NCBI GenBank assembly: GCA_031267755.1
Contig: JAIRYP010000004.1
Coordinates: 10,686 to 74,685 of the forward strand
Length of the DNA: 64,000 nucleotides
Reading direction: 5' to 3'
From: Clostridiales bacterium
Lineage (GTDB): Bacteria > Bacillota > Clostridia > Monoglobales > JAIRYP01
Part shown: positions 21,273 to 51,939 of the stretch, piece by piece
Layout of the letters: the number at the start of each line of letters is the position of its first letter
Numbering within the stretch: position 1 is the first letter of the stretch
Position numbers and translations under genes: made by a program
The notes under the pieces: model-generated
What the model was told of the DNA's origin: nothing
The model's database searches: none
Seen by the model: the letters and a program-made list of their open reading frames with translations, nothing else

Positions 21273-22055
21273 TTAAGATATATTTTTAAGTTGCAATCTT
21301 AGTTTATCGGCAATCATAGCTATAAATTCAGAATTTGTAGGTTTCCCTTTAGTATTTGCAACAGTATAACCAAAAAAAGAATTTAAAATATTGATATCGC
21401 CCCTACTCCAGGCAACCTCTATTGCGTGCCTTATGGCGCGTTCTACACGACTTGGTGTTGTATCGTATTCTTTTGCGACCATTGGATACAGTTCTTTTGT
21501 TATTGAATTTACTGCATGTAAGTTGTTTATTACCATCATTATTGAACTTCTCACATATTGATAACCTTTAATGTGTGCAGGAATTCCTATTTCATGCATT
21601 ATATCGGTCACAAGCGTTTCGGTGTCAGCAATTTTTACAGATTTCATGCTCATTCCTTTGTTGCGCTCGTTTGAAGATTCATCTACTATATTTTTTATTC
21701 TGGTTACTAAACAATCAAAATTTATAGGTTTAATCATATAATATTTTGCACCGAGTTCCGTGCAAGTTTGAGCAATTTTTTCGTGCGACATTGATGTGAT
21801 TATTATAAATGTAACATTGAAATCAAGATCTATTCTGTTTATTCTCTCTAAAACTCCAATACCATCTAGATTTGGCATAACAACATCAAGTAGTACAACA
21901 TCTGGCTTAGTAATTTGTATTAATTCGATTGTTTCAATTCCGTCTGAACTTTCTCCAACAATTTCCATATTTCCTTCTGAAGAAAGAAATTGATGCAAAC
22001 TTTCTCTATAGCTTCTGTTATCATCAGCTATTAAAATTTTAATTTTTTTATTCAC
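21273..22055 (-). CDS. spo0A: sporulation master regulator Spo0A
   Basis: A receiver domain ([21 protein letters not shown]) is followed by the Spo0A C-terminal DNA-binding signature ([36 protein letters not shown]). Confidence 0.95.
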
Positions 22056-23491: not shown

Positions 23492-24307
23492 ATGATTGTA
23501 TACGCTTTAGTTGGTGAAAGCGGAACCGGGAAAAGTTATAATAGTCTGCGAGTTGCTAAGGAAAATAATATATATTATGTTATAGATGACGGAATACTTA
23601 TTCACAAAAATAAAATTTTATGTGGAAAGTCTGCAAAAAAAGAGCGTACAAAAGTTGCTTCAGTAAAGTGCGCCTTATTTTTCGATAAAAAACATAGAGA
23701 TGATATGAAAAAAACAATAAAAGAAAAAAAGATAAATTTTCTTCTCATACTTGGAACATCAAAGAAAATGGTTGAAAAAATTGCTGAAAATTTGGGACCT
23801 TTTAAAATTTCAAAATTTATTAGTATGGAACAAATTTCATCTTCTGAAATTATTGAATACGCAAAGAAAATGAGGCAAGAGCAAGGCAAACATATTATTC
23901 CGGTTCCTACACTTGAAGTTAGGAAGCATTTTTTAGGATATTTTTTAGATCCTATAAAACTCAGTTTTATAAGAAAAAATAAAGTGATTGTTGAGGAAAA
24001 AACGGTAATTCGTCCGAGTTTTAGTTTTTTTGGAGAATATTTTGTCTCAAATAAAGTAATTTTTGATATTTGCGTTTATGAAATTCTGAAATTTAAAGAA
24101 GTTCAAAAGATTGTTAATGTCAGAATTTTTGGTATTAAAATTAAAAAGTTAAGCTTAGTAATTGATCTTATTTTATTGTATCCTTCTGATTTAAAAGGCG
24201 TTTGCAGTAAAGTTTCTAAAATACTTAGGAAAAAAATTGAAGATTTTACATCACTCAATGTAAAGAATATAAAAGTTAATGTAAAGACAATTGTTTTTAA
24301 AAAATAA
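23492..24307 (+). CDS. hypothetical fusion protein: N-terminal P-loop NTPase-like domain plus C-terminal Asp23/Gls24-like domain
   Basis: Walker A-like LVGESGTGKS occurs at aa 6-15. The C-terminal ~100 aa (GEYFVSNKVIFDICVYEILKFKEVQKIVNVRI to LNVKNIKVNVKTI) has the alternating pattern of Asp23-family proteins. Confidence 0.5.
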   Translation: MIVYALVGESGTGKSYNSLRVAKENNIYYVIDDGILIHKNKILCGKSAKKERTKVASVKCALFFDKKHRDDMKKTIKEKKINFLLILGTSKKMVEKIAENLGPFKISKFISMEQISSSEIIEYAKKMRQEQGKHIIPVPTLEVRKHFLGYFLDPIKLSFIRKNKVIVEEKTVIRPSFSFFGEYFVSNKVIFDICVYEILKFKEVQKIVNVRIFGIKIKKLSLVIDLILLYPSDLKGVCSKVSKILRKKIEDFTSLNVKNIKVNVKTIVFKK

Positions 24308-25203: not shown

Positions 25204-25218
25204 AGTTTGGAGTCCATT

Positions 25219-25842
25219 ATGATTTACAATGATGACAACGTTATTGTTTGTTTTTGTCCTGAGTGCGAAGAAATTTGCATTAAAGAAGTTTATTTTTTTA
25301 ATTTTCACACTTTAAAGGGAAAAACAATCATATGTGAAAATTGTAAATCTGTTGTGGTTGAAATAGTTGTTGAGAGTATGAAAAAATATAAAATGAGATT
25401 TTTATGTTGTGAATGTGGAAACATTCACGAAACATTTTTAAATCCGTCGATTTTTTGGAGAAGTGAAATTTTTATTTATAAATGTCAAGTTACTAATGGA
25501 GTTTCTTTAATTACGGGAGAAAAAAATAATGTTTTTAAATTTGTTGAAACTTTGAAAGAAACTCAAGACATAAATACTTCAAGTATTGAAAATCTTCTTG
25601 AAGAAAGAGGTGAAAATCATGTTGTGTTTGCTGAAATTGTAAATGTAATAAGAGAAATAAACAAAAATAATAGAATTGTTTGCGAATGTGAAAATAGAGA
25701 CATAATTTTAACATTGAACAAAAAAAATATTAAATTTTTGTGTGAAAAGTGTAAGAATGTGAAGATAATAAAAGTTACTAAAAAGGAACTTGTTAAATTA
25801 AAAAAAGATGGCAAAATACATGTGAAAAAAATTTATTTATAA
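25219..25842 (+). CDS. hypothetical Cys-rich protein with repeated zinc-ribbon-like CxxC pairs
   Basis: The track starts at TTG 25207, but the ATG at 25219 lies 6 nt after GGAG. Cys pairs: CFCPEC/CENC, CCEC with a distal C, and CEC/CEKC. Confidence 0.55.
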   Translation: MIYNDDNVIVCFCPECEEICIKEVYFFNFHTLKGKTIICENCKSVVVEIVVESMKKYKMRFLCCECGNIHETFLNPSIFWRSEIFIYKCQVTNGVSLITGEKNNVFKFVETLKETQDINTSSIENLLEERGENHVVFAEIVNVIREINKNNRIVCECENRDIILTLNKKNIKFLCEKCKNVKIIKVTKKELVKLKKDGKIHVKKIYL

Positions 25843-32568: not shown

Positions 32569-33438
32569 TTGAGCGCAACGGAATCAATCGTTGAAAAATA
32601 TGGAATAAAAAATCTGTCTGATCTTGAAGAATTGATAGAAAATACTGAATTCGAAATAGATTCATTGGGAGAAGAAGCGGAAAATTATCCTGAAATGGAA
32701 AAATTTTTATCTAATTTATACAAATTACGTTTGAAATTGGAAAAGGAAAATGCTTCTCCTGAAGCACCACCTGAATCAACAGATGCGGAAACGTCTTCAG
32801 TTTGGGAAAATGAAACTGCCCCTCCTGAAGCATCACCTGAATCGGAAGAAATAGTTTTAGAATCACCTGCTGAATCGGCAGAATCGAAAACATTTTCTAT
32901 AGAAGAAGTAAACCTCGAAACATATCCTACTTGTGAAAGTAAAATTGCCTCTTCTGAAGTACCTCCAGTAGCACCACCTGCTATAGAAAATTTTAGAACA
33001 AAAGAAGAATTTCAAACTTTAATTCGAGAATGTGCTAAACAAGAGGAACCTGTGGATTGGAGTGTTGTAGACAGTTCAGACGAGTTGAGACGTTGTAGTG
33101 TTGATACTTTAGAGACGTATCTAGCGTATTCGGAGGTTATGGATTTTAAAATTGATCGTATCCTTAAACATGAAAATGAAAATGATTTGGAATTACTTTA
33201 CACATACTTTGGCAGACTTATTGAACTTATCTTTGAACAACTTAAATGTATCGAACATACCTTTGAACAACGTGAACGTATGGTATGTATATTGGGCCGA
33301 TGCGAATGTATTAGAAGTACCTTTGAACAAACGAAATGTACTGAATACAAAAAATTGTTAAGAGATGAAATTGGTAGGACCAGATTTTTTAGAGATTTGA
33401 ACGAGAGATGTCAAATAGTAAGAGCTACAAACAGATAA
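32569..33438 (+). CDS. orphan acidic protein with Pro/Glu/Ser repeats and a C-terminal Cys-containing FEQ repeat
   Basis: TTG start 10 nt after AGGAGG. A 22-nt near-repeat, ctcctgaagca(c/t)cacctgaatc, occurs at 32756-32777 and 32822-32843. ctttgaacaa occurs three times (33231, 33261, 33321), encoding (I/T)FEQ-x-KC-x-E. No signal peptide is visible. Confidence 0.65.
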   Translation: MSATESIVEKYGIKNLSDLEELIENTEFEIDSLGEEAENYPEMEKFLSNLYKLRLKLEKENASPEAPPESTDAETSSVWENETAPPEASPESEEIVLESPAESAESKTFSIEEVNLETYPTCESKIASSEVPPVAPPAIENFRTKEEFQTLIRECAKQEEPVDWSVVDSSDELRRCSVDTLETYLAYSEVMDFKIDRILKHENENDLELLYTYFGRLIELIFEQLKCIEHTFEQRERMVCILGRCECIRSTFEQTKCTEYKKLLRDEIGRTRFFRDLNERCQIVRATNR

Positions 33439-34210
33439 AGACGCCTGAAACAACTGGGCAAATTAAAACAAAGTAATCTTGAGAGGAAAAGAAAATTATC
33501 ACTTGAACTGTTATCATCTCAAATTGTAAGGAGAGAGTACAGAGAATTTTTAAAATAAAACAGATAAAACGAATGATAAACTGTTAAGTGATTTATTTCA
33601 AGAGAGTTAAACATTTGAAATTTTTTGTTTAAAAAAACATAATGTAAGATTGTCGAGTTTTGAATATATTAAAATAAAGATGAGATTGCAATTAAAGTCG
33701 CATTGAAAAAAATATCAGAGCAGATTTTACCATTTTCGTTTTTTTAATTTTATAAAGCTTACATTATTTGCGCTGAAGCAATGTTTTGCGATATTTTATG
33801 AAAAAAGAAATTTGATAGAACAAAAGGGAATTTATAGATCAATAAATTGTAATGATGATTCTTCAGCGTTACAGTCGCATAGTTACAGCAACAACACATT
33901 TTCCAGATTTTAATTTATTTGAGATTTGGTTTTGTTTTATTATTGAGTTATCAATTTATTTTTCATTTCATAGTACTTCTATAAATTTCAGTGAATTTCA
34001 TAGTATTCTTGTTTCTACGGTATGCCACAGTTTTATATTATTCGCCATTCGATAAATCTCTCAGGTTATTTGTTTTGCAGTTATTATGTTGAAATATATT
34101 ATTTTATAGCAGAATGTTTACATGAATATTTAAATGCACATAAGAAATAAACTAGACATAATATATAATAATAGCAATAAAATACCAACATTTCAAGGAG
34201 GGAGAATAAC

Positions 34211-34345
34211 ATGAATAAAAATTTTATTTACCCACCAAAGCATTATGAATACGGATATTTTAATAGAAAAATTACAAGCGAATTCATTAAAGGTTTGATA
34301 CTCAACAATTTATTTAGAGTGTATCATAGACCTTTTGAAAGATAA
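34211..34345 (+). CDS. candidate small protein (44 aa)
   Basis: It falls below the track's length cut-off. The ATG at 34211 lies about 8 nt after a near-perfect SD (AAGGAGGGAG). Product: MNKNFIYPPKHYEYGYFNRKITSEFIKGLILNNLFRVYHRPFER. It converges on the tRNA cluster. Confidence 0.4.
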   Translation: MNKNFIYPPKHYEYGYFNRKITSEFIKGLILNNLFRVYHRPFER

Positions 34346-34383
34346 AACTATAGATTGTATGCTATAAAACTTATAATTATTAG

Positions 34384-34457
34384 TGGAGGCGCCACCCAGA
34401 TTTGAACTGGGGATAAAGCTTTTGCAGAGCTTTGCCTTACCACTTGGCCATGGCGCC
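34384..34457 (-). tRNA. tRNA-Cys (anticodon GCA)
   Basis: The reverse complement GGCGCCATGGCCAAGTGGTAAGGCAAAGCTCTGCAAAAGCTTTATCCCCAGTTCAAATCTGGGTGGCGCCTCCA folds as a cloverleaf. The anticodon loop is CTGCAAA and CCA is encoded. Confidence 0.9.
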
Positions 34458-34485
34458 AATTATTAAGATAGCATTCCCTAAAAAA

Positions 34486-34560
34486 TGGAGCGGAAGACGA
34501 GGATCGAACTCGCGACTCTCACCTTGGCAAGGTGATGCTCTACCACTGAGCCACTTCCGC
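34486..34560 (-). tRNA. tRNA-Gly (anticodon GCC)
   Basis: The reverse complement is GCGGAAGTGGCTCAGTGGTAGAGCATCACCTTGCCAAGGTGAGAGTCGCGAGTTCGATCCTCGTCTTCCGCTCCA. The anticodon loop is TTGCCAA. Confidence 0.9.
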
Positions 34561-34714
34561 ATTGTTTCTTCAGTTTTATAATTTTAGTATACGTACAACC
34601 GCCGTAGAAGTGTAAAAAAATTAATTTTTTGTCTTTTGTAAATTTTTAAATAAATTCCTTTTAAAATATAATTATATGATTTTAATGCGAACGTTTTACA
34701 ATTGTTTACATTTT

Positions 34715-34790
<76 letters not shown>

Positions 34791-34801
34791 AACCATAAAA
34801 T

Positions 34802-34878
34802 TGGCGACCCGAAAGGGATTTGAACCCTCGACCTCCAGCGTGACAGGCTGGCATTCTAACCATCTGAACTATCGGGCC
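34802..34878 (-). tRNA. tRNA-Asp (anticodon GTC)
   Basis: The reverse complement is GGCCCGATAGTTCAGATGGTTAGAATGCCAGCCTGTCACGCTGGAGGTCGAGGGTTCAAATCCCTTTCGGGTCGCCA. The anticodon loop is CTGTCAC. Confidence 0.9.
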
Positions 34879-34881
34879 AAA

Positions 34882-34957
34882 TGGTAGGCACAACAGGGAT
34901 CGAACCTGTGACCCTCTGCTTGTAAGGCAGATGCTCTCCCAGCTGAGCTATGCGCCC
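34882..34957 (-). tRNA. tRNA-Val (anticodon TAC)
   Basis: The reverse complement is GGGCGCATAGCTCAGCTGGGAGAGCATCTGCCTTACAAGCAGAGGGTCACAGGTTCGATCCCTGTTGTGCCTACCA. The anticodon loop is CTTACAA. The acceptor stem has two G-U pairs. Confidence 0.85.
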
Positions 34958-35000
34958 TTAAAAATATCGAACATGCTTATCTTAAAATATTAAAGTTTGC

Positions 35001-35022
35001 TCTCCGGAAATTTAGCCGGAGA
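35001..35022 (-). terminator. GC-rich hairpin between csp and the tRNA cluster (probable csp terminator)
   Basis: TCTCCGG-aaatttag-CCGGAGA forms a 7-bp stem with T/A-rich flanks on both sides. Confidence 0.5.
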
Positions 35023-35040
35023 ATTTTATAATTTTTTTAT

Positions 35041-35253
35041 TTAATCGCAAGGACAAACTTCAGATGCCTGAGGGCCTTTGTGTCCATCTACGATATAGAA
35101 TTCAACGTTCGCTCCTTCTTCCAACGTTTTATAACCTTCTGCTTCAATTGCTGAAAAATGCACGAAAACATCCGAACCGGTTTCGCTTTCGATGAAACCA
35201 TAACCCTTTTCAGCATTAAACCACTTTACTTTTCCCTTTTGTTTCTTTACCAT
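35041..35253 (-). CDS. cold-shock protein (CspA family)
   Basis: Contains [15 protein letters not shown] (RNP1) and VFVHFSAI (RNP2). 70 aa. Confidence 0.95.
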
Positions 35254-35554
35254 TGCACAACCCCACTTTTTCGTTCAACGAACTTAAAATTTAGTGTCAA
35301 TAAAAACACTACGCCGGATACTATCATAATTATTTCTTGCAGTCAACACTGTTTAAATTTTTTTTAAAAATATTTTAATTTTTGTTTTAATAATTTATAA
35401 AATATTCCTATAGAATGTATTTTCATCATTTTTCATAAAATTTTATTATAAATTTTGATTTTTTAAATAATTCTTTACTTTTTATTTTATTTATGTAATA
35501 ATGAAGATTATTATTTTGAATATTTAAATTTTTTGAACTGTAGGGGTGAGTTGA

Positions 35555-38500
35555 ATGTTGTTAAATAATAATTATAAAGTTTATATTCGTTTTTCAGCAG
35601 ATGGTGCTGGTTTAAGCAGTGATTTTTTTAGCGATGAACAAAGAGGTGTAATTGATAATTTATTTAAAAATGTTATTTTAAATAATTTTTTTGAAGTTTT
35701 TTATAGAGTCAATGAAATAAAGGGAAATGGCGTTGTTTTTGCAAGACAAATTTTAGATTATTTAGAAGGTAGAAGTTCAGAAATTAAAAAAATTAAATTT
35801 ACATTGGATGGCGTTGAAATATTAGGTTTTTATTGTGATTCAAAAATATTTTCTGCTGATTTTAAACTATTATATGAATTTGATCATGAAGATGAGTTTT
35901 TTAAGAAATATGGTAGTGATGAACGGGTTAAAATTGATGGTTGCGGGCGTCCTTTATATATACCCCGTAATGAAAATTTTGACGATATTATTGCTATGCA
36001 ATTGTCATACGACTTCAAAGATCAAAACTTACCTATAATTCGAAATTTAATTAATGAATTGGAATTAAATTATTTAGATTTAAAGACATCACTTGAAAGT
36101 TTATACTCATACATAAAATTTTCACCAAGTAGTTGTGCTAATAATTTTAAACAAATGAAAAAAACATTAGTTGACGAAGATACTTTAAATTTTCTTCGAG
36201 GAAATAATTGTCTAGTAAGTTTTTTTTGTGAATATTTAGGTGATAGATTTAAAAGTGAATTTTTTAATGCATTGAAAAAAATTGAAAAAAACGAAGATGA
36301 TGGTTTAGAAATTTTTAATACTTATAGAATTTTAATAAATGGTGAATTAAAAACTGTTTACATTTGGGGAGAAAGCTTATTTGATGCAGAATCAGGAACT
36401 AGGTTATGCGGTTTTGATTTTTCTTATAAAAAAGCATTCGATGATTATGGAAATTTTGTTGAATTAAAGGATGTACTTGGTGAAGCGTTAGATCTTTCGA
36501 ATTTAAATGATGGAACTAGTGAGTGTTATCACTTAAATCGATCAATTTTTCTTCCAGTTCATAAACTTAATTATAATTTGGGAATTTTTAAAGAATTTTT
36601 TAATCTTTTTAGAAGAAATAATGTTGAATATTCATTTTCAATTATTTCACAAGAATTATTTGGATTTAATTTAAGTGAAAAATTTGAAAAATTTAAATTT
36701 ATTATTAATTCCGATGCTCTTTCAAACAGAGCATTAGGAAATAAAAGTTTTGGCGTTTATGATTCTTATTTTATAAAAGAATTTTCGAAACTTCTTTCAT
36801 TTCCTTTTTTTGATTGTATTTTAGAAAATATAGTTTCTAATAATACTAATATTGGTTCTAAGCATAACGCACTTTTTTTTATTTTAAAAGATATTTTTGA
36901 AAGAAATTATATTGATTTATTTTATTTTACGAAAATTGTTATTAATAATTCTGAGTTTTCTGTTTATAGAATAGGTAATGATTTATTTGATATTAAAACG
37001 TTAAAATTGGTTGCTAGTTTCAATCCAGATTCAGATAAATTTTTAGATTCAAGTTTAAATGAAATCAAAGTATACGTTAAAGATGAAGATGAAGATGAAA
37101 ATAAAGTTCTAGAAGTTTTAACTTTAGAAGATTTGGTTTTTAATAGTGATTGTTATAAATTGCCTGATTTTTTGCATCCCTTTCAATACTTGAATTTAAG
37201 TACTTTAGAAATTTTAAAAAGTTTTCATGATTACGCGGTTTCTAATCTGTCATCAATGTCAAATGAAATGTTTGAAAAAGTTTCTTTACGATTAAGTGAT
37301 ATTGAAGAAGTTAATGTTTTCAACGCCCATGAAAAAAAATTATTGAGTGAAATTGTAAAAAGTGATTATTGGGCGTTTTTGCATGGAATATTTACGAATA
37401 TTTCAGAAGATACCACAATCGATAATTTTATTTATTCTATTTCGCATAATGTTTTGTTTTTGGAATATAGTGCTAACGTTAATGGCTCAGATTGTACTAT
37501 ACATATTGATAAAAAACACGGTATTGTGTACGATAAGGATTTTAAACCTTTATTCTATGTAAATGAGTCTGGCAATTTTATAAATTTTTTTGGTGAAGAA
37601 ATTACTTTAATAATAAACGAAGAAGAAATTAAAGATTTAAATAATATTAATATGAATCAGCCTTCTGATAGAGAAATTTCTCCACTTGTACTTAGTTTGT
37701 TAGCTGATCGTAGTATTTTGGAAAGACTCTTAGTATTGTTTAAAGAACGTGGGGATGTAGCTTATGATGAATTTCAAGATTTTATGAATAATGAAATAAT
37801 AGAGTCAAAACGTATATTAGTTGAAGATGAATTTTTTGATATTATGGTACGTGAGATTGATGGTTTATCTTTTAAAAAGGCTTTTACAAAAGATCAAAGG
37901 GATATACTTGAAGCTTGCAAAAGTGACCCTTTTGTACTAAAAATTTTACCACTTTTGCAGGGCTTGGAGAATGTTGAAGAATTTGAAGAAACATGTTCTT
38001 ATTTTTTAAATGATAGATCGTTTAATGGTTTTGAAGTTGAAATTTCAGGTGTGAAAACAGAAGTAGTTGTGTTTGATAATGAAATTTATTCGGCGGTTTC
38101 TGGTGAAACTTTGGGTCGGATAGTGGGAAACGTTATAATGTCTGAGGGCCATCCTGATGTAGTTCTTAATGCGACAAAATTGGATGGCAATTCTCTTCTT
38201 ATTGAAATAGAAGGAGACTATGTTTTTGATATTGAAAATTTAGATCCTGCAGAGGGCAATCCTGCAGTATTTGAAAACTTAAAGAAATTACTTGGTTTTA
38301 GTGGAAGTGCACAAGAAGCTTTTTACGAACTTTTTAAAAAGGAAGAAGATATAGATGGAAGCACATTAGAACGAATGCAAAATGCATTAAGGAAAGATGT
38401 ACCAGGAGTAGAGTGGAATGATGGTGATGCAGAAGATGACGATGTAGAAGTTAAACACACGGATGATGAACATGCAGATGATGATGTAAAACACAGCAAA

Positions 38501-39268
38501 CATACAGATATTGTTGGAGATTCTCATGTTATAGCCGCACATATTCCAAAGGTTGTTAAAAATGAGTTAGAATCTGATCCTGTTTTTCCGTTATCATCGA
38601 ATCTTCCAAAACCAAATGATGAAACCAAATCGGTAGAAACTTTTGAATTGTGCGATAAACGTAAAGAAGAAATTTTTAAAATGCGTTCTAAAGCTTTTAT
38701 ACAAAAAGACTTTGAGACCCGTCGTAGTATTCTTTTGTCATTATATCAAACGCTTGGTTTAAACCATGATCAAGAAACTCTTTTTAAAAAAATATTTTTT
38801 TGTTATACGGTTGATTTGTTTGCAAAAAATGGAATTTTTAGCACAGAAGATAAAGAAAAAATTGAAGATATTTTTAAGAATAATCCTAAAGCACAAACTG
38901 ACTTATTTGAATTATTTGAAAATGGAAATGAAAAAGATTTCCTAGAATATTTTAAAAATTATAAACGATTTAGCTCGGGTCTAATTGGTAATTTAAAGCA
39001 GCTTTTTGTGATTGTTTTAAATGGTTTTTTGGATATATTTGGTTATAAAAAAAATCAACGCACTGTTGAAGCAGTGCAAAAAACTTTTTGTGAAACATGC
39101 GATTCAGATTTGTGTTTTTTATTTAATAAACCTGTGCTTTTAAATGAAAGAGTTTCTACATGTTTGTTTGTTAATGCAGATGAAATTGAAAAACATAGAG
39201 AGTTAGAGATTTTAGCTAAATTTCCAAAAGAAACTAAGGATAGGAGTGATGTTTTGCCCAAAATTTAA
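35555..39268 (+). CDS. orphan giant protein (1237 aa) built from five ~185-aa repeat units, an acidic His-rich linker and a helical C-terminal domain
   Basis: ATG lies 6 nt after GGGGTGAG. It is a single uninterrupted ORF with no Walker, HExxH or other catalytic motifs seen, no signal peptide and no TM segment. The repeated hairpin-like motif lies at aa 81-110, 257-290, 460-490, 636-670 and 826-860. Confidence 0.75.
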   Translation: MLLNNNYKVYIRFSADGAGLSSDFFSDEQRGVIDNLFKNVILNNFFEVFYRVNEIKGNGVVFARQILDYLEGRSSEIKKIKFTLDGVEILGFYCDSKIFSADFKLLYEFDHEDEFFKKYGSDERVKIDGCGRPLYIPRNENFDDIIAMQLSYDFKDQNLPIIRNLINELELNYLDLKTSLESLYSYIKFSPSSCANNFKQMKKTLVDEDTLNFLRGNNCLVSFFCEYLGDRFKSEFFNALKKIEKNEDDGLEIFNTYRILINGELKTVYIWGESLFDAESGTRLCGFDFSYKKAFDDYGNFVELKDVLGEALDLSNLNDGTSECYHLNRSIFLPVHKLNYNLGIFKEFFNLFRRNNVEYSFSIISQELFGFNLSEKFEKFKFIINSDALSNRALGNKSFGVYDSYFIKEFSKLLSFPFFDCILENIVSNNTNIGSKHNALFFILKDIFERNYIDLFYFTKIVINNSEFSVYRIGNDLFDIKTLKLVASFNPDSDKFLDSSLNEIKVYVKDEDEDENKVLEVLTLEDLVFNSDCYKLPDFLHPFQYLNLSTLEILKSFHDYAVSNLSSMSNEMFEKVSLRLSDIEEVNVFNAHEKKLLSEIVKSDYWAFLHGIFTNISEDTTIDNFIYSISHNVLFLEYSANVNGSDCTIHIDKKHGIVYDKDFKPLFYVNESGNFINFFGEEITLIINEEEIKDLNNINMNQPSDREISPLVLSLLADRSILERLLVLFKERGDVAYDEFQDFMNNEIIESKRILVEDEFFDIMVREIDGLSFKKAFTKDQRDILEACKSDPFVLKILPLLQGLENVEEFEETCSYFLNDRSFNGFEVEISGVKTEVVVFDNEIYSAVSGETLGRIVGNVIMSEGHPDVVLNATKLDGNSLLIEIEGDYVFDIENLDPAEGNPAVFENLKKLLGFSGSAQEAFYELFKKEEDIDGSTLERMQNALRKDVPGVEWNDGDAEDDDVEVKHTDDEHADDDVKHSKHTDIVGDSHVIAAHIPKVVKNELESDPVFPLSSNLPKPNDETKSVETFELCDKRKEEIFKMRSKAFIQKDFETRRSILLSLYQTLGLNHDQETLFKKIFFCYTVDLFAKNGIFSTEDKEKIEDIFKNNPKAQTDLFELFENGNEKDFLEYFKNYKRFSSGLIGNLKQLFVIVLNGFLDIFGYKKNQRTVEAVQKTFCETCDSDLCFLFNKPVLLNERVSTCLFVNADEIEKHRELEILAKFPKETKDRSDVLPKI

Positions 39269-39558
39269 TCATAATAAAATAAAAATTTAAGACATATGAT
39301 ATTATTATTTTAATTTTTTAAATTATTTTTAAAATTTTATTGAAATTTCAGTGTTGTTTAATATATAATAAGAATTAAAATTTTTAAAAAATATTGAAGG
39401 ATGGGGATGATATTTAAGATATTAGTAATAATAAATGTGTATTATAAATAATAAAATTTTTTGTAGTTTTATATTGATTTTTTAATTTATTTGTGCTATC
39501 ATGACTATGTTGTATTTTTTAGTTAGATGAATTTAAAATTTTTTGGAGGATGAATTTT

Positions 39559-41076
39559 ATGTTGAAAAAACTTTTTTTGTTAAAAGCTATAAGAGAATCA
39601 GGTTCAGCTGGTGCAGTACCAGCTGCAGCATCAGCTGCAGCATCAGCTGCAGGTGGTGTTGCAGCACCCGCGACAAAAGCGTTAACAGATACTCAAATTA
39701 CAACTATTACAAGTTTTGTTGCTCTGCCTGGCTCTGAACTATTACTTAAACGTTGGAATGATTTGGCAAAAACTGATCCAGCTGCTGCAAATGCTCAGTT
39801 ATTGAAAGATGCTACGCAATATAGTCTTAAATTAGGCGATGCCGAAGACGCTTCTCCATATTATGTAGTTGATGATTTAATCATTGCACAAGATGGAACT
39901 GTTGCAGGCGCGATTGTTGGAAATGAATTTAAGAGTTCAGATAAATCATCAGCTTTAGTTGTTAAGTTACCAACTGTTGATGAAGCGATTTTGCTAGGTG
40001 ATGATGCGAAACAACATTTGTCAAAATTAGGCGCTCCTATAACAGATGGTTCTCTATATAAAGCTGTTGATGCCTTTGTGAAAATTCCTGTCGATGAATT
40101 AAAATTAATTCAGGTTGAAATTGAAAAAGCTAAGGGTAAAACCGGTGCAGGCTTTTCAAATGAACTTTCTAAACTCAAACTTGAAGCACTTGTCAAGGCG
40201 CCGGCTGTAATTCCACCAGGAAAAGGTCCGGGCGATTCAGATCTATCAGCTCAACCACCAGGAAAAGGTCCGGGCGATTCAGATCTATCAGCTCAACCAC
40301 AAACTCTTGAACAAGTAAATGCTGAAATAGCAAGAATTGATTCTGAAATTGATGCTTTTCACAAAAGAATTGTGTCTGAAGGAACGTTTAATGTCGCAGC
40401 TTTGATTCAGAATCAAAAAGATTTTTTCGAAGTTGTTGATAAACCATATGATTCTTCAGTTGCATTGTTAGCTTTGGTGGTTGCTTCTTCAGCACTGGAA
40501 ATGAAAGACAAAAAAGTTGATGGCAAGGATCAAAAACTTATTAGTGTTGCTGACGCTCGTAAACTTAGAGCTATTCTTTCAGATGCAAAGAGTGATCCAA
40601 AAAAACTCGAGGCATATGGGAAACTTTTGAAAGAAGGTAAGGTAAAAGAGGCTGCTGCACTCATTACGGGCGACACTCATGATAATGCTATTGTACGTTT
40701 CATTATAGCAATTGGTTCTGCAATTGCAGGTGTGTTAGGACTTTGTGCCGAGAGAAGAAATTGGGAGATAATTAAAAAAGAGATTGTTGAAGCTTCTAAA
40801 GTAAAAGAAGTTACATTTAAAGTAGAACCATCCGATAAAGTTTATTCCATTTTTACTCCAAAACCAGAAGATGTTAAAGAACTGCAAGTAAAGACAAGAG
40901 AAAAAGAAGAACTTTCTAAAATTGCGCAAAAATTAGGAAGCGGTAAGGCATCGGGTGCTGATGCAGCAAAAGCCCCAACAGTAAAGCCTGCTGATGCAGC
41001 AAAAACCACAGCAAAGCCTGCGGGGGGTGCTGATGCAACAAAAACCACAGCAAAGCCTGCTGCTAATGGTAAATAA
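39559..41076 (+). CDS. orphan Ala/Lys/Pro-rich protein with one hydrophobic helix, internal tandem repeats and one copy of the giant-protein module
   Basis: The track start at 39550 directly abuts GGAGG, whereas the ATG at 39559 has 9-nt spacing. Features in track numbering: (AAAS)n near the N-terminus, the module at aa 45-125, PPGKGPGDSDLSAQ twice, a hydrophobic helix at aa ~380-400, and a C-terminal tail made of three imperfect ADA(A/T)K-x(2,3)-KPA units. Confidence 0.75.
   Translation: MLKKLFLLKAIRESGSAGAVPAAASAAASAAGGVAAPATKALTDTQITTITSFVALPGSELLLKRWNDLAKTDPAAANAQLLKDATQYSLKLGDAEDASPYYVVDDLIIAQDGTVAGAIVGNEFKSSDKSSALVVKLPTVDEAILLGDDAKQHLSKLGAPITDGSLYKAVDAFVKIPVDELKLIQVEIEKAKGKTGAGFSNELSKLKLEALVKAPAVIPPGKGPGDSDLSAQPPGKGPGDSDLSAQPQTLEQVNAEIARIDSEIDAFHKRIVSEGTFNVAALIQNQKDFFEVVDKPYDSSVALLALVVASSALEMKDKKVDGKDQKLISVADARKLRAILSDAKSDPKKLEAYGKLLKEGKVKEAAALITGDTHDNAIVRFIIAIGSAIAGVLGLCAERRNWEIIKKEIVEASKVKEVTFKVEPSDKVYSIFTPKPEDVKELQVKTREKEELSKIAQKLGSGKASGADAAKAPTVKPADAAKTTAKPAGGADATKTTAKPAANGK
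40213..40296 (+). repeat. perfect 42-bp tandem duplication inside the 508-aa ORF
   Basis: ccaccaggaaaaggtccgggcgattcagatctatcagctcaa occurs at 40213-40254 and again, identical, at 40255-40296. It is followed by ccac, the start of a third unit. The repeat is in frame (14 aa). Confidence 0.95.
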
Positions 41077-41656: not shown

Positions 41657-43354
41657 ATGTCTTTTAGATCGTTATATAGAAAATTTAGACCATCAACATT
41701 TGAAGAAATTGTTGGACAATCGCACGTGATCAAAAGTTTAAAAAACTCTATTAATTTTGAAAGAATTTCTCATGCATATTTATTTTGCGGTTCAAGAGGT
41801 ACTGGCAAAACTACAGTAGCAAGAATCTTTTCAAGAGCTGTAAATTGTGAAAAAACATGTGAAGGAAATCCTTGTAATGAATGTAAAACATGTCTTGCAA
41901 TATTAAACGAAAAAATTTTTGATGTTTATGAAATGGATGCAGCGAGCAATAATGGTGTTGACAATATTAGAAAAATAAATGATGAAATTTTATATAGAAC
42001 ATTTCAAACTAAGCATAAAATTTATATAATAGATGAAGTCCATATGCTATCTTCCGGTGCTTTTAATGCGCTTTTGAAAACTCTTGAGGAGCCGCCAGAG
42101 AATGTTGTGTTTATTTTGGCAACTACTGAGTGTCATAAAATTCCGGAAACAATAATTTCAAGATGTCAAAGGTTTGACTTTAAAAGAATTAAAACTGCAG
42201 AAATTGTGGCAAATATCGAAAGAATAGCAAAATTTGAAAATATCAATATAACGTTTGATGCAATTTGGATGATTTCTGAAATTTCAGATGGCTCAATGAG
42301 AGATGCTCTTAATTATTTGGACGTGTGCATGGTAGCAGGATGTGAAGTGACATATGATTATGTAGTAGAAATTTTTGGTTCGATAGATAAAAAATTCATT
42401 TTTAAAATGACTCAAGATATAAAAAATAAGGATATTAAAAATGTTTTAAAAACAAGTTATGAACTTTTAGATTTAGGAAAAGACTCGAGTAGGATTTTTG
42501 AATCAATTTTATCTTTTTTCGAAAATATCTTACATTATAAAACGATAGGTAATGCTAATGAAGTGATTCAAGATGGTTTGAGTACGTCCGAAAGATGTGC
42601 ATTTTTTGCAAAGGAGTTTTCTTTTCAAGAAATTTCCGAAACGATAAATATTTTAAACGAATATTTTTTATTATTAAACAGTAGCAAAAATTCTTCTCTT
42701 GCCTTGACTGCTGCTCTTATTAGAATATGCAGCAAAAAAAAATCATATGAAATTTTAGAAAAGAACTTTTGTGAGCTTGAAAAAGAAATTTTAAAAATTA
42801 AAAAAAATATTGAAATTGTTTTAAATAATAAAAATTTTAATGATGAAATATTAGATAATAATAAAAGGAACGAATGTGTTTCGAATTTTGAAAAAAGTTT
42901 TTTAAATGATATGGATTGTGAAGAAATGAATAAAAAAAATGAAAATTACGAAGAGAATGTTTTTAACATAACAGAAAATAAAAATTTTTGCGAAGGAGAA
43001 GTTTTGGAAAAAAATTTGAATGAAACAGCAGAACATAATAACTCTGGTGATTTGTGGAGTAGATTGCTTGAAAAAATAAGAAGTGAAAGTAAAAAACTTT
43101 TTAAAATTTTATATTCAGCAAAAGTGCAAATGCGAGATAATAAAATTATAATTTATTTAAGAGGTTTGGATTATATTAAAGTCAACACTTCAAAAGGAAA
43201 AAAATATCTTCGTGATGTTATTAGTGAAATTTCTTCAGAAGATTTTGAAGTGATAATAAATGATACAGAAGTAGATGGGAATAAAAACGAATCTTTAAAT
43301 GAAATTTTGAGCTTTAAGGATAAACTTCCGGGAGTAATGATGATTGAAGAATGA
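41657..43354 (+). CDS. dnaX: DNA polymerase III subunits gamma/tau
   Basis: Contains HAYLFCGSRGTGKTT (Walker A), a CxxC zinc module, IIDEVHMLS and SRCQRFDF. Confidence 0.95.
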   Translation: MSFRSLYRKFRPSTFEEIVGQSHVIKSLKNSINFERISHAYLFCGSRGTGKTTVARIFSRAVNCEKTCEGNPCNECKTCLAILNEKIFDVYEMDAASNNGVDNIRKINDEILYRTFQTKHKIYIIDEVHMLSSGAFNALLKTLEEPPENVVFILATTECHKIPETIISRCQRFDFKRIKTAEIVANIERIAKFENINITFDAIWMISEISDGSMRDALNYLDVCMVAGCEVTYDYVVEIFGSIDKKFIFKMTQDIKNKDIKNVLKTSYELLDLGKDSSRIFESILSFFENILHYKTIGNANEVIQDGLSTSERCAFFAKEFSFQEISETINILNEYFLLLNSSKNSSLALTAALIRICSKKKSYEILEKNFCELEKEILKIKKNIEIVLNNKNFNDEILDNNKRNECVSNFEKSFLNDMDCEEMNKKNENYEENVFNITENKNFCEGEVLEKNLNETAEHNNSGDLWSRLLEKIRSESKKLFKILYSAKVQMRDNKIIIYLRGLDYIKVNTSKGKKYLRDVISEISSEDFEVIINDTEVDGNKNESLNEILSFKDKLPGVMMIEE

Positions 43355-44082: not shown

Positions 44083-45066
44083 TTAAAAATAGAAATTTAT
44101 GTTTTCCAAATTATTTATACCATTCGAGATATTAAACAAAATTTCCTCTACTTCATATATAACTTTCATTTTATTTATTTTTTCCTTTAAAGAATTGTTT
44201 AATTTTATTCCTTTTAAATACCAAAACAAATGCTTTCTAAATTCTCTTATCCCTCTTTTTTCTCCTTTATATTTAAGTAAAAATTTAGCGTGTTCTAAAG
44301 AAATATTTAATTTTTCTGTTAAAGTAGGCTTTTTGAGTTTTTTTTTATATTTCAAATAATAATTAATTTCTCTAAATATCCAAGGATTACCTCTTGAAGC
44401 GCGCCCGATCATTATTGCATCACATTTTGTTTTTTTAATGAAATTTTCGGCTGATTCTTCGTCAATTATATCTCCGTTTCCAATAATAGGAATTTTTACA
44501 TTTTCTTTTATTTTTTTTATTATTCCTAAATCAACTTGTCCCTTAAAAAATTGTTCCCTGGTTCTTCCATGAACTATGATCGCTGTTGAACCACTTTCTT
44601 CTAATATTTTAGAAAATTCCACAGCATTCGTTAAATTTTCATTCCAACCATTTCTAATTTTAACTGAGACTGGAACATCCGATACCTTTACTACAGCTTT
44701 TACAATTTCTTCCGCTAATTTTGGTTCTTTCATCAAATAACATCCGTCTTTATTTTTAACGATTTTAGGTGCCGGACATCCCATATTTATATTTATAAAT
44801 TTTGCTTTACCGTTTAATTTTTCGTAAGTAATTTTTTGCATTACTGTTGGATTGTGACCAAAAATTTGAATTCCAACCATGCCTTCTTGATTTGATATTT
44901 CCAAATATTCTTCAGTTTTTTTATTGTTAAAAAACAAACCCTCACAGCTTACCATTTCAGTAAAACTGATAGCGGGCTCAAATTTTTTTGCAATAATTCG
45001 AAATGCTTTATCAGTAATTCCGGCCATTGGTGCAAGCCAAACGCTGTTTTTAAAAAGTTTTTCCAC
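44083..45066 (-). CDS. dusB: tRNA-dihydrouridine synthase
   Basis: Contains LAPMAGITD, NMGCPAPK (catalytic Cys), VSVKIR, VHGRT and MIGRA blocks. Confidence 0.9.
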   Translation of the reverse strand: MEKLFKNSVWLAPMAGITDKAFRIIAKKFEPAISFTEMVSCEGLFFNNKKTEEYLEISNQEGMVGIQIFGHNPTVMQKITYEKLNGKAKFININMGCPAPKIVKNKDGCYLMKEPKLAEEIVKAVVKVSDVPVSVKIRNGWNENLTNAVEFSKILEESGSTAIIVHGRTREQFFKGQVDLGIIKKIKENVKIPIIGNGDIIDEESAENFIKKTKCDAIMIGRASRGNPWIFREINYYLKYKKKLKKPTLTEKLNISLEHAKFLLKYKGEKRGIREFRKHLFWYLKGIKLNNSLKEKINKMKVIYEVEEILFNISNGINNLENINFYF

Positions 45067-45805
45067 TTGTTATGGTCCCAAATTGGTATATATTTTTCTT
45101 TTTCTTTTTTGTGATCAAAATAAATGTTTTTATGCTTAAATGAAGAAGTGAAATTTCTACAGGAAATAAAAAAATATTTTTTGCGGTTCTGAGCGAAAAC
45201 CACAAACAAATGTTTTCGTCTACGAAATGAGACAAACAAATAGAATTTGCAACTATATTAACGAATAAAGTTGTGCAAAACTTTGACAGAAAAATTCTCC
45301 AGAAAACAATATCTCTTTCATAAAAAAACATTCCATATATTATACCTGAAAACAAAGAATTTATAAATAGCATGGGAGTAAAAAAAACTTCTCGGGAAAA
45401 TACAAATCTCACAACTTCGTTGATTGCACAAAAAGCTCCTCCAATTACAGGCCCATAAAACATTGATACAAAAGCGTTTACTAAGAAATTTAAATGAAAT
45501 TCTATATCGTTACAAATTTCTATTACAAAATAAATTCTACTTAATATTAAATTTATAATTGACAATATGAGACAATTTATGATAAATTTTTTGTTTATAA
45601 AGTTTTTTAGTGAATGTCTGTAATTTTCTATGCAAAGCGCTAACAAAATTATTACAATTAATAATATCAAAAAATTTCCGTATTTTAAAAAAATCTTTAA
45701 AAAATTTTCTATAAAATTAAAGGCAGTGTACAAATTTTCCTTTAGAAATAAATAAGTATTTAAATAAAAGGATGAAATTACATCTGAAAAATTCGTACAA
45801 GACAC
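45050..45805 (-). CDS. ECF transporter S component, folate-family-like membrane protein
   Basis: NFLVNAFVSMFYGPVIGGAFCAINEVVRF, FSGIIYGMFFY, TTLFVNIVANSI and RTAKNIFLFPVEISLL are colinear with FolT-type S components as I remember them. The N-terminal extent is uncertain. Confidence 0.55.
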   Translation of the reverse strand: MSCTNFSDVISSFYLNTYLFLKENLYTAFNFIENFLKIFLKYGNFLILLIVIILLALCIENYRHSLKNFINKKFIINCLILSIINLILSRIYFVIEICNDIEFHLNFLVNAFVSMFYGPVIGGAFCAINEVVRFVFSREVFFTPMLFINSLFSGIIYGMFFYERDIVFWRIFLSKFCTTLFVNIVANSICLSHFVDENICLWFSLRTAKNIFLFPVEISLLHLSIKTFILITKKKKKNIYQFGTITSGKTF

Positions 45806-49003: not shown

Positions 49004-49720
49004 TTAAAAATCTTTTTCTGTTTTTTCTAAATATTCTTTAAATATTTTTTTTTTTAGTTTCATGATTGCTTTTTTTTCTATTCTAGATACGTAAGATCTT
49101 GATATACCAAGTTTCCTAGCAATTTCTCTTTGAGTAAGTTTTTTTGAACAACAAAGGCCATATCTAAATTTTAAAACTTTTATTTCTCTTTCATCTAGTT
49201 CTGATTTAATTTTTTCGTATAAACTTTTGATTTGGTCATTTAAAATAATTGATTCAAATATTTCATTGTCATCTGTGCTCATTATACTGAAAAGTGTGAA
49301 TTCATTTCCTTCTTTATCAATTCCAACTGTTTCTTCGAGCGAAGTATCGTTTAGCATTTTTTTATTTTGTCTTATAAGCATAAGAATTTCATTTTCTATA
49401 CATCTGGACACATATGTAGATATTTTTGAAGATTTGGAAGGATCAAAACTTTCAATGCCCTTCATAAGCCCAATAGTACCTATTGAAATTAAATCTTCAC
49501 TATCTTTAACACTTTGAATGTACTTTTTTGAGATGTGCGCAACCAATCTTAAATTATGCTCAATGAGCTTATTTCTTGCCTTAATATCACCTTGTTTATA
49601 TTTTTCAAAGTATAATTGTTCGTCTTTTGGCGATAAAGGTTTTGGAAAAGAATTATTATCGGATATATAAGATATTAAAAATAATATAGGTCTTAATAAA
49701 ACTATTGATAAATTAAGCAC
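49004..49720 (-). CDS. sigK: sporulation sigma factor sigma-K (pro-protein, uninterrupted)
   Basis: FLISYISDNNSFPKPLS, LIEHNLRLVAHI, IGLMKGIESF, IDKEGNE and ISRSYVSRIEKKA match SigK rather than SigE. The GTG at 49720 lies 5 nt after GGAGG and gives a ~20-aa pro-sequence. The track's extension to 49807 runs into the probable hup terminator hairpin (AATGC/GCATT plus T run, about 49797-49824). Confidence 0.88.
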   Translation of the reverse strand: MLNLSIVLLRPILFLISYISDNNSFPKPLSPKDEQLYFEKYKQGDIKARNKLIEHNLRLVAHISKKYIQSVKDSEDLISIGTIGLMKGIESFDPSKSSKISTYVSRCIENEILMLIRQNKKMLNDTSLEETVGIDKEGNEFTLFSIMSTDDNEIFESIILNDQIKSLYEKIKSELDEREIKVLKFRYGLCCSKKLTQREIARKLGISRSYVSRIEKKAIMKLKKKIFKEYLEKTEKDF

Positions 49721-49869
49721 AATTACCTCCGCAGAAAAGACATCAGTGAATTTTATGCGAAATCGTTTCACTGCGTGCAAGTCCACGGAAGAGAAATATA
49801 AAAACAATGCGCAAATAAAGCATTACGAAGCATAATTAATATATTTGAAGTATGCGCTTAAAGTAATTT

Positions 49870-50424: not shown

Positions 50425-51939
50425 TTATAATATTATACATATTAATCCTCCACTTCCTTCATTTATAATTTTTTGAAGTGTTTCTTGAAGTTTAAATTGA
50501 GCATCTTCTGGCATTTTGTACAATTTATTGTGAAGACCTTCGTTAACTAGTTCATGTAATGATTTTCCAAAAATATTTGATTCCCAAATTTTTTTAGGGT
50601 CAACTTCAAATTCTTTAAGAAGATAATGGACCAGCTCTTCACTTTGTTTTTCGGTTCCCACAATTGGGCTTACTTCGGTTTCAATATCTGCACGAATCAT
50701 GTGTATTGATGGTGCCGATGCTTTGAGCTTAACACCAAATTTGTTACCTTGCTTAACTATCTCTGGTTCTTCAAGTGTTAATTCATCAATGGTCGGCGAA
50801 ACTATTCCATAGCCTTTTCTCGATACTTCATCAAGTGCACCTGAAATTTTGTCATATTTTTTCTTTATTAGCGATAATTCACTCATAAAGTTAATAATTT
50901 CTTCTTGGCCGTTTATTAAAAAGCCCGAAGTTTCTTCAATTATTTTATAAAATAAAGTTTCAAGAGTTTTGATGTCAATCGTAGCATTTCCTTCGCCGAG
51001 ATTAATTTGTTTTATTAAAACTTTTTCCGTATTTTCAAATTCTTCAAGTTGCTCGGTAATACTTTTAATTTCTTTAATTTTAGAAATATTTTTGACAGAT
51101 TTTAAAATATTTTCTTTTATAGACGCTTTAAGCCAATGTTTATCATCGAGGTTATTTACCCACTTTGGAATATTTATACTAATTTCAGTTAAAGGAAATT
51201 CGAATAAAACTGTTTCCATTATATTACTTATATCTTCTGCTTCAAGTTCTTTACAATTTATATTAATTACTGAAATATTATGTTTTTCTTCAATTTGTTT
51301 CTTTGCATTTTTTGCACTTTCAGAATTTGGATCAATTGTATTTAAAACAACTATAAAAGGTTTATTAAGTTCTTTAAGTTCATTTATAACTTTGTCTTCG
51401 GCGTCTATATAATCTTCTCTATCAATGTCGGTAATTGTTCCATCGGTTGTAACGACGATTCCAATTGTTGAATGTTCAGTTATTACTTTTTTTGTTCCGA
51501 TTTCTGCAGCTTGAGAAAATGGCATAGGTTCTGTGCTCCATGGAGTAATCACCATTCTTGGTGCACCGTTTTCAACACTACCTAAAGAATTATTTACCAC
51601 ATATCCGACACAATCAATTAGGCGAGCTTTGAATGAAATGTTTTCTCCTAAAGTTTTATTTTCATCAGAAGTATTTTTGCCTAAAAAAATTTCAACAGCT
51701 TCATTTGGAATAAACTTAGGTTCTGTTGTCATAATTGTTTTTCCACCTGAGCTTTGAGGAAGTTCATCGATTGCTCTCGCTCTTGCAAGGTCATTTTCGA
51801 TATTTGGTATGATAAAAATGTTCATAATTTTTTGTATAATTGTGGATTTTCCAGTTCTGGCTGGTCCAACAAACCCTATATATATATTTCCGTCTGTTCT
51901 AATTGCGATATCTTCATAAACATTTCTATAATTGTTCAA
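50425..51939 (-). CDS. spoIVA: stage IV sporulation protein A
   Basis: Contains DIAIRTDGNIYIGFVGPARTGKST (Walker A) and ends in GLICIIL. 504 aa, colinear with SpoIVA. Confidence 0.95.
   Translation of the reverse strand: MNNYRNVYEDIAIRTDGNIYIGFVGPARTGKSTIIQKIMNIFIIPNIENDLARARAIDELPQSSGGKTIMTTEPKFIPNEAVEIFLGKNTSDENKTLGENISFKARLIDCVGYVVNNSLGSVENGAPRMVITPWSTEPMPFSQAAEIGTKKVITEHSTIGIVVTTDGTITDIDREDYIDAEDKVINELKELNKPFIVVLNTIDPNSESAKNAKKQIEEKHNISVININCKELEAEDISNIMETVLFEFPLTEISINIPKWVNNLDDKHWLKASIKENILKSVKNISKIKEIKSITEQLEEFENTEKVLIKQINLGEGNATIDIKTLETLFYKIIEETSGFLINGQEEIINFMSELSLIKKKYDKISGALDEVSRKGYGIVSPTIDELTLEEPEIVKQGNKFGVKLKASAPSIHMIRADIETEVSPIVGTEKQSEELVHYLLKEFEVDPKKIWESNIFGKSLHELVNEGLHNKLYKMPEDAQFKLQETLQKIINEGSGGLICIIL

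Follow-up and report, generated by a model that had tools for sequence, protein, structure and literature searches.

Within a 64,000-nucleotide (nt) stretch of DNA from a Clostridiales bacterium (GenBank assembly GCA_031267755.1, contig JAIRYP010000004.1, positions 10,686 to 74,685 of the forward strand; hereafter, the window), a long open reading frame (ORF) at positions 35555-39268 encodes a protein of 1237 amino acids (aa) that is a strict ORFan: single-copy, lineage-specific, and without a detectable relative. The gene is real and native, and is neither a recent import nor a relic. Judged by similarity between its parts, the protein has undergone one ancient internal duplication that can be regarded as established. 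The reading favored here, to which a probability of roughly 0.4 is assigned, is that the gene is a native ORFan of an uncultured lineage of AT-rich, spore-forming Clostridia that encodes a soluble, acidic array of tandemly duplicated alpha/beta modules functioning as a multivalent binding or scaffold protein. Within that reading, we infer the homology of all five modules, a core of two hairpins in each, the solubility of the product, and its function as a scaffold.

The coding sequence and its probable translation signal are as follows.

35555..39268, plus strand: coding sequence of the 1237-aa ORFan, taken from the ORF list, with an ATG start
35542..35549, plus strand: Shine-Dalgarno-like site AGGGGTGA, read directly from the sequence, 5 nt 5' of the ATG

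These limits and the length of 1237 aa are those reported in an earlier note on this DNA, which had been made from the letters and the ORF list. The encoded protein is identical to MDR1391682.1 (LBJ09_00620), deposited as "MAG: hypothetical protein" (MAG, metagenome-assembled genome) from a Clostridiales bacterium. Its contig is 106,772 bp long, of which the window covers 64 kb, too short a basis for the small genome of which the earlier note had spoken. At the local base composition, the probability of 1237 codons without a stop is 9e-54, and the other five frames of 35555..39268 contain 44-220 stops each. The guanine plus cytosine (GC) content at codon positions 1, 2, and 3 is 0.41, 0.25, and 0.15, respectively, and the codon-usage log-likelihood is -3.60 in frame versus -4.34 and -4.73 out of frame; by both measures the gene is indistinguishable from the window genes gyrA, polC, dnaX, and rny. 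The stop-free length and the agreement in codon-position GC and codon usage with the other genes of the window thus identify the ORF as a native gene. An AT-rich intergenic spacer of 300 nt precedes it and is common to the divergent cspA gene.

No search for relatives of the protein returned anything other than the protein itself. A word-indexed HMMER search of the full protein against 5.8 billion proteins, an exhaustive phmmer search of aa 1-1200 against 1.84 billion representatives, and a profile built from the five units described below (E<=10), which was a check proposed in the earlier note, each recovered only the self match. The whole protein matched no family at E<=1 in Pfam, NCBIfam, PHROGs, or PADLOC, so that no recognizable family was found there, as the earlier note had supposed. 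Single units scanned against the family libraries at E<=10 returned only noise (best E=0.033, far under the cut-offs), the five beta cores concatenated matched no Pfam family, and the C-terminal domain alone had no match in Pfam, PHROGs, PADLOC, or the Protein Data Bank (PDB). Sequence searches of the PDB, tblastn searches of phages and plasmids, scans of viral and metagenome contigs, and a contig look-up with the exact protein were likewise without a match, and the 64-kb window holds no paralogue.

The host can be placed among spore-forming Firmicutes/Clostridia by the presence in the window of genes for PolC, RNase Y, GyrA, DnaX, Spo0A, SpoIVA, and a sporulation-type sigma factor; its GC content is ~27%. 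The conserved N-terminal part of the neighboring DnaX (window 41657-43354, plus strand) shares at most 45-53% identity with its counterpart in any of ~186,000 genomes, each representing a species, and the C-terminal, lineage-specific 186 aa of DnaX found no match in a scan of a metagenome collection. Because even DnaX reaches a maximum of only 53% identity to species representatives, the lineage is essentially unsampled and provides no close relative for comparison. The genes for Spo0A (21273-22055), for a sigma-70-family factor, possibly one of sporulation (49004-49807), and for SpoIVA (50425-51939) all lie on the minus strand, and the host appears to have retained endospore formation despite its 27% GC and many unrecognizable genes.

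The earlier note had described the protein as five repeat units of ~185 aa, each with a hairpin-like motif. Units cut at its spacing, the beta cores delimited within them, and the two regions that follow are listed below.

35555..36142, plus strand: unit 1 (aa 1-196), cut at the spacing of the earlier note; the weakest unit
35780-35992, plus strand: beta core of unit 1 (aa 76-146), with hairpin A at aa 81 and hairpin B at aa 124
36143..36745, plus strand: unit 2 (aa 197-397), the unit at the center of the similarity network
36308-36520, plus strand: beta core of unit 2 (aa 252-322)
36746..37285, plus strand: unit 3 (aa 398-577), the unit modeled with AlphaFold2
36914-37132, plus strand: beta core of unit 3 (aa 454-526)
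37286..37846, plus strand: unit 4 (aa 578-764), with strands predicted at aa 650-686 and scoring-matrix matches at aa 675 and 639
37454-37660, plus strand: beta core of unit 4 (aa 634-702)
37847..38404, plus strand: unit 5 (aa 765-950), with strands predicted at aa 826-837 and 871-885
38015-38242, plus strand: beta core of unit 5 (aa 821-896), with hairpin A at aa 827 and hairpin B at aa 873, both recovered in an unbiased search
38405..38584, plus strand: acidic, His-rich linker (aa 951-1010), probably disordered, with an isoelectric point (pI) of 4.3 and a net charge of -14
38585..39265, plus strand: C-terminal helical domain (aa 1011-1237), with four Cys spaced C-x2-C-x4-C-x15-C at aa 1179-1203 (nt 39089-39163)

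Units 2 and 3 carry the evidence for duplication. They are the only pair that stands out in Smith-Waterman comparisons with shuffled sequences (z=3.9; 1/200 shuffles), and their alignment pairs aa 228-348 with aa 433-557, in register, over ~125 aa. Comparison of units with hhalign gave P=0.006 for units 2 and 3 and P=0.022 for units 2 and 5, both in register. No repeat is left at the DNA level within the gene, which indicates that the duplications are old. The claim of five ~185-aa repeats therefore stands in part, through this extended similarity and through a hairpin motif that does recur, and falls short in that comparison of the whole protein with itself was insignificant.

The recurring motif was first taken up as it had been described. 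All 11 peptides quoted in the earlier note are present at or very near the positions given for them, although the second and fifth hairpins end slightly sooner than had been stated, at aa 257-288 (nt 36323-36418) rather than aa 257-290 and at aa 826-859 (nt 38030-38131) rather than aa 826-860. The spacings of 176, 203, 176, and 190 aa between hairpins are as it gave them. A helical motif was said to precede most hairpins by about 80-85 aa, a distance that is correct only if the end of the hairpin is taken; from the start of the one to the start of the other it is ~50 aa (from aa 25 to 81, 205 to 257, 590 to 636, and 777 to 826). An unbiased search for the best set of five ungapped 20-mers scored 188, compared to 138.6 +/- 15.4 in shuffled sequences, and exceeded 60 of 60 shuffles (z ~3.2). 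The sites that it selected, at aa 124 (RVKIDGCGRPLYIPRNENFD), 258, 460, 827, and 873 (ATKLDGNSLLIEIEGDYVFD), comprise three of the five motifs of the earlier note and two new ones, the latter lying 43-46 aa after its motifs 1 and 5. Since the new sites lie at this distance, each unit probably contains two hairpins spaced ~43 aa apart. When a position-specific scoring matrix was trained on the five unbiased sites, its top nine other matches included aa 81 (motif 1, the best match outside the training set, with a score of 10.0), aa 675 and 639 (both in unit 4), and aa 511 (a candidate second hairpin of unit 3), none of which is individually significant. Thus, for unit 1, hairpin B (aa 124) is among the unbiased sites and hairpin A (aa 81) is a matrix match that is not significant alone.

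The earlier note had placed a conserved core module of ~85 aa across the helical motif and the hairpin, a delimitation that did not hold: with the hairpin excluded, the helical N-terminal flanks had no in-register similarity above chance (Fisher p=0.41), and that of the C-terminal flanks was marginal (p=0.044); the helical motif thus does not exceed chance. Conservation lies instead in a beta core of ~70 aa, which begins at the hairpin of the earlier note and probably includes the second hairpin ~43 aa downstream. With cores taken as aa 76-146, 252-322, 454-526, 634-702, and 821-896, alignments were obtained between units 2 and 3 (p=0.002), 2 and 5 (p=0.004), 2 and 4 (p=0.011), and 1 and 4 (p=0.036). 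The alignment of cores 2 and 4 is full length and in register (aa 253-318 versus aa 634-699), and that of cores 1 and 4 is also in register. The Fisher combined p for the beta cores is 4e-4, to be read with the caution that the ten pairs are not independent and that random five-segment controls reached 0.003. On these alignments, the five beta cores likely form a family that is linked through unit 2.

Predicted structures agree with a modular layout. A single-sequence AlphaFold2 model of aa 1-1200 had a mean predicted local distance difference test (pLDDT) score of 33.7 and is unusable beyond rough secondary structure; in it, at low confidence, helical stretches alternate with clusters of strands at aa 124-137, 460-523, 650-686, and 826-889, and the smoothed strand track of this low-confidence model has autocorrelation peaks at 188, 366, and 540 aa. 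The same low-confidence model places no secondary structure at aa 948-1027 and an all-helical region at aa 1028-1191, its best part, where the pLDDT is only ~50-57. When unit 3 was modeled as the target of the five-unit alignment, the pLDDT rose to 65.5 with a predicted template modeling (TM) score of 0.57, residues 457-507 reaching 83-90, and the model comprises three helices, a meander of ~seven short strands, and further helices. The secondary structure of both models and the strand autocorrelation are thus in keeping with the modular, roughly periodic alpha/beta layout that the earlier note had suggested. A structure search with the unit 3 model, itself of moderate quality (pLDDT 65.5), found no fold match in the PDB or BFVD, the top Foldseek matches being insignificant (E>=0.77, TM-score<=0.22). 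The prediction and fold search that the earlier note had proposed accordingly yielded a moderate model of one unit and no significant fold match.

A number of observations weigh against an array of five homologous modules. First, comparison of the whole protein with itself, by which the earlier note had expected its repeats to be detected, was not significant: self-BLAST at E<=100 returned the diagonal only, with no off-diagonal match, and the best off-diagonal matches in self-hhalign were those of units 2 and 3 (P=0.07) and units 2 and 5 (P=0.2). Second, hidden Markov models (HMMs) trained on four units recovered only unit 2 as the unit left out (9/500 shuffles), the other four yielding 94-330/500. 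Third, the composition of the protein, rich in F, N, I, K, D, and E, is AT-driven and inflates chance similarity, and the beta-core regions were delimited by the very similarity under test, with random controls reaching the value given above. Fourth, the helical N-terminal flanks are no more similar than chance, and the gain of the unit 3 model over the single-sequence run may reflect the short, isolated segment or unit 2 alone. Finally, neither an orthologue nor an informative neighbor was found that would bear on function. Because whole-protein repeat detection is insignificant, homology of all five ~185-aa units over their full length is no more than plausible.

Much of this is what would be expected if only units 2 and 3 were truly duplicated and the remaining copies were a chance beta-hairpin pattern (h-x-h-[DN]-G-...-h-[FY]-D) in biased, AT-driven sequence, such that the protein would be a string of unrelated orphan domains. 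To the empty self-BLAST, the self-hhalign minimum, the leave-one-out failures of units 1, 3, 4, and 5, and the N-terminal flanks at chance can be added that an HMM of units 2 and 3 did not recover units 1, 4, or 5, and that the unbiased sites are unevenly spaced and omit motifs 1 and 4 of the earlier note. This interpretation is a possible one, but on the unlikely side. It leaves unexplained that the cores of units 2 and 5 and of units 2 and 4 align in register at the p values given above, that the best hhalign matches between units 1 and 4, 3 and 5, and 4 and 5 fall within ~11 aa of register (each insignificant alone), and that regions of predicted strand recur every ~185 aa. The uneven sites, moreover, are in keeping with units of two hairpins each.

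Under the favored reading of a multivalent scaffold, the product would be a soluble, strongly acidic 143-kDa protein without a catalytic signature, composed of tandemly duplicated alpha/beta modules of ~180-200 aa. Each module would consist of approximately three N-terminal helices, a ~70-aa beta-meander core with two hairpins ~43 aa apart, and C-terminal helices; the modules would be followed by a disordered, acidic and His-rich linker and then by a C-terminal domain that is helical and carries four cysteines. The duplications would be ancient, with extended similarity kept only by units 2 and 3. Several physicochemical properties are consistent with this outline. The protein has a mass of 143 kDa, a pI of 4.69, and a net charge of about -79. 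No transmembrane segment was found, the maximum Kyte-Doolittle value over a 19-mer being 1.59 in a segment that contains charged residues, and, judged by hydropathy, the N-terminus (MLLNNNYKVYIRFSADGAGLSS) is not hydrophobic and lacks a signal-like start. A Pfam scan of the protein found no SLH, CWB2, LPXTG, or LysM domain, and a Walker A motif ([AG]x4GK[ST]) occurs nowhere in it. The absence of an enzymatic motif, transmembrane segment, or signal peptide, as noted earlier from the sequence, was thus borne out by hydropathy, the Walker A search, and the Pfam and NCBIfam scans. Two features described in the earlier note, an acidic linker rich in His (aa 956-985) and a cluster of Cys residues (C1179, C1182, C1187, and C1203), are present, and histidines are concentrated at aa 968-996. 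Given the lack of a catalytic motif, the acidic multi-module build, the disordered linker, and the helical, Cys-bearing end domain, a scaffold protein is the most economical interpretation, in line with the scaffolding role that the earlier note had suggested. Without acting as an enzyme, it may bind multivalently or serve as a scaffold, either within the cell or in the cytoplasm of the mother cell; the repeated beta cores could be its interaction surfaces and the C-terminal domain an anchor or metal binder.

A bolder form of this idea is that the unit of ~180 aa, and its double-hairpin core of ~70 aa in particular, is a domain or fold that has not been seen before, and that the protein is the founder of a lineage-confined family of repeat scaffolds, for example a spore-surface or intracellular scaffold with five equivalent modules. 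This is unlikely. The architecture is familiar in kind, with an array of duplicated modules ahead of a disordered linker and a terminal domain; the module itself is unmatched. The singleton status of the protein in an unsampled, fast-evolving lineage accounts for most of its apparent strangeness.

Among known folds, the recurrent motif calls to mind the blades of beta-propellers (PQQ-like/BamB-type, WD40, and sialidase). Its sequence, as in RILINGELKTVYIWGESLFDAESGTRLCGF, suggests a meander of four strands with turns at Gly/Asn; it includes an "h-[FY]-x-x-D-x-x-[ST]-G" turn, and the ~43 aa between paired motifs is a blade-like length. Further, propellers are over-represented among the top Foldseek matches, insignificant as these are (NanB sialidase, DCAF1 WD40, and prolyl endopeptidase). 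Unlike the blades of a propeller, which form a contiguous closed ring, the meanders of this protein are separated by ~100 aa of helices. Membership among the propellers (PQQ-like, WD40, Kelch, or BNR) was rejected, since no Pfam repeat matched even with the concatenated cores and the Foldseek matches are insignificant.

A functional sub-case of the scaffold reading is that the protein is a morphogenetic or scaffold protein of the spore coat or exosporium, made in the mother cell without a signal peptide and assembled on the forespore surface, where its repeats would provide multivalent contacts and its His/Cys-rich C-terminal part would cross-link or bind metal. Genes for Spo0A, SpoIVA, and a sporulation-type sigma factor occur in the same window, and the protein combines large size and strong acidity with restriction to one lineage and the lack of a signal peptide or transmembrane segment. 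Such traits are typical of fast-evolving coat proteins, for example those of the SpoVID, SafA, and CdeC class. Coat proteins such as SpoVID, SafA, SipL, and those of the CdeC class are acidic, large or modular in build, and lack signal peptides; they evolve fast, are often lineage-restricted, and are found in organisms with spo0A and spoIVA. The protein nevertheless differs from them in having no homology to known coat proteins or domains (LysM, SPOCS, or CotH), and its gene is not adjacent to sporulation genes. The promoter does not help: inspection is uninformative in intergenic DNA of ~15% GC, where a crude sigma-E-like pattern occurs at chance frequency, and a comparison with the DNA upstream of spoIVA for sigma-E/K promoters was equally uninformative. 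A scaffold of the spore surface is a specific candidate, considered distinctly unlikely.

It is improbable to a greater degree that the protein is a secreted, host-directed effector or a surface protein of a host-associated bacterium that leaves the cell by non-classical export. Three ORFans (289, 1237, and 508 aa) are clustered at this locus, the downstream one has a predicted transmembrane segment, and the lineage is AT-rich and fast-evolving, as judged by the low maximum identity of its dnaX; against this, the protein has no signal peptide, transmembrane segment, LPXTG, SLH, CWB2, WXG/LXG, or other export or anchoring domain, and the ORFs scanned include no secretion-system genes. 

Hardly any weight is given to the view that the protein derives, by extreme divergence or decay, from a known large enzyme (an AddB/RecB-like helicase-nuclease) or that the ORF is non-functional, either of which might account for a database singleton: FSDEQRGVI and FTKDQRDIL resemble the Q motif of superfamily 1 (SF1) helicases, and the C-x2-C-x4-C near the C-terminus recalls the Fe-S cysteines of AddB (C-x2-C-x5-C), leads that meet the absence of a Walker A motif and of any helicase, PD-(D/E)XK, or other Pfam or NCBIfam signal even at E<=10, a C-terminal domain that is predicted to be all-helical, and, in the case of a dead gene, an intact ORF with native codon usage and a Shine-Dalgarno-like site. 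Membership in the SF1 helicases or AddB was accordingly rejected on the lack of a Walker A motif, the lack of a nuclease HMM match, and the C-x2-C-x4-C-x15-C arrangement of the cysteines in a domain predicted to be all-helical.

Two further comparisons place the protein among better-known systems. Polyimmunity proteins (arrays of SUKH/SMI1-KNR4 or Imm domains) are similarly cytoplasmic, non-enzymatic, and fast-diverging, with tandem alpha+beta modules of ~100-180 aa; the protein differs in matching no SUKH or Imm family in Pfam, in finding no fold match in the PDB although SUKH structures are deposited there, and in having no adjacent polymorphic-toxin gene among the neighbors scanned. It also resembles the generic ORFans of poorly sampled, AT-rich lineages, in that it is a singleton in 5.8 billion proteins and both of its neighbors are ORFans, but at 1237 aa it exceeds the usual length of an ORFan, and an internal duplication can be detected within it.

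The three ORFan genes lie between gyrA and dnaX as a cluster of orphans. Upstream of the 1237-aa gene, 32569-33438 (plus strand) encodes an acidic 289-aa ORFan without family or relatives that contains repeats of the APPE[AS]PES type and, in its C-terminal part, successive Cys-containing motifs of the form "C-x-x-[ST]-F-E-Q". It is followed at 33439-34383 by ~950 bp without a long ORF in an otherwise dense genome; this segment has no Rfam match even at E<=1 and holds a 44-aa ORF (34211-34345, MNKNFIYPPKHYEYGYF...) behind a strong ribosome-binding site (AAGGAGGGAG). The region 34384-35353 (minus strand) carries five tRNAs (Cys-GCA, Gly-GCC, Phe-GAA, Asp-GTC, and Val-TAC) and then a gene for a 70-aa cold-shock protein (35041-35253), and this block is transcribed divergently from the 1237-aa gene. 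A match to the cspA thermoregulator 5' untranslated region at 34995-35353 is sub-threshold (31.6 bits versus a gathering score of 78). Downstream, 39550-41076 (plus strand) encodes another strict ORFan of 508 aa (505 aa in the NCBI version), with an Ala-rich N-terminus, a perfect tandem of PPGKGPGDSDLSAQ (x2), a tail rich in Lys, Ala, and Thr, and a hydrophobic segment near the C-terminus (FIIAIGSAIAGVLGLCA) that is predicted to span the membrane. The GC content of this gene at codon positions 1 and 2 (0.57 and 0.42) is unusually high for the genome, and a strong promoter-like site of its own, TTGAAA-18-TATAAT, lies at 39340-39369.

Elsewhere in the window, Pfam recognizes no domain at E<=1e-5 in four further ORFs of 211-450 aa (19830-21182, minus strand; 23492-24307, plus; 25207-25842, plus; and 45050-45805, minus). 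The first of these adjoins spo0A, a position that in Firmicutes is usually held by spoIVB. The most AT-rich part of the window contains a gene for a Wzy_C (O-antigen ligase-like) membrane protein (11850-13733, minus strand), which belongs to a cluster of cell-envelope genes that also includes those for MurJ and a group-1 glycosyltransferase; the GC content is 0.205 over 12-14 kb and only 0.24 at codon position 1 of the Wzy_C gene.

The lineage has a high share of proteins that have diverged beyond recognition and, because several ORFs in the window are also without a family, one more orphan is the less surprising. The practical value of the finding is limited by its being a singleton from one MAG, with no orthologue by which conservation or selection could be assessed. 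If the five modules are homologous and their fold is unmatched, they would constitute a new domain family. In that case, too, a very large protein would have been invented, or would have diverged beyond recognition, within one bacterial lineage, which bears on the origin of ORFans and on their growth by internal duplication.

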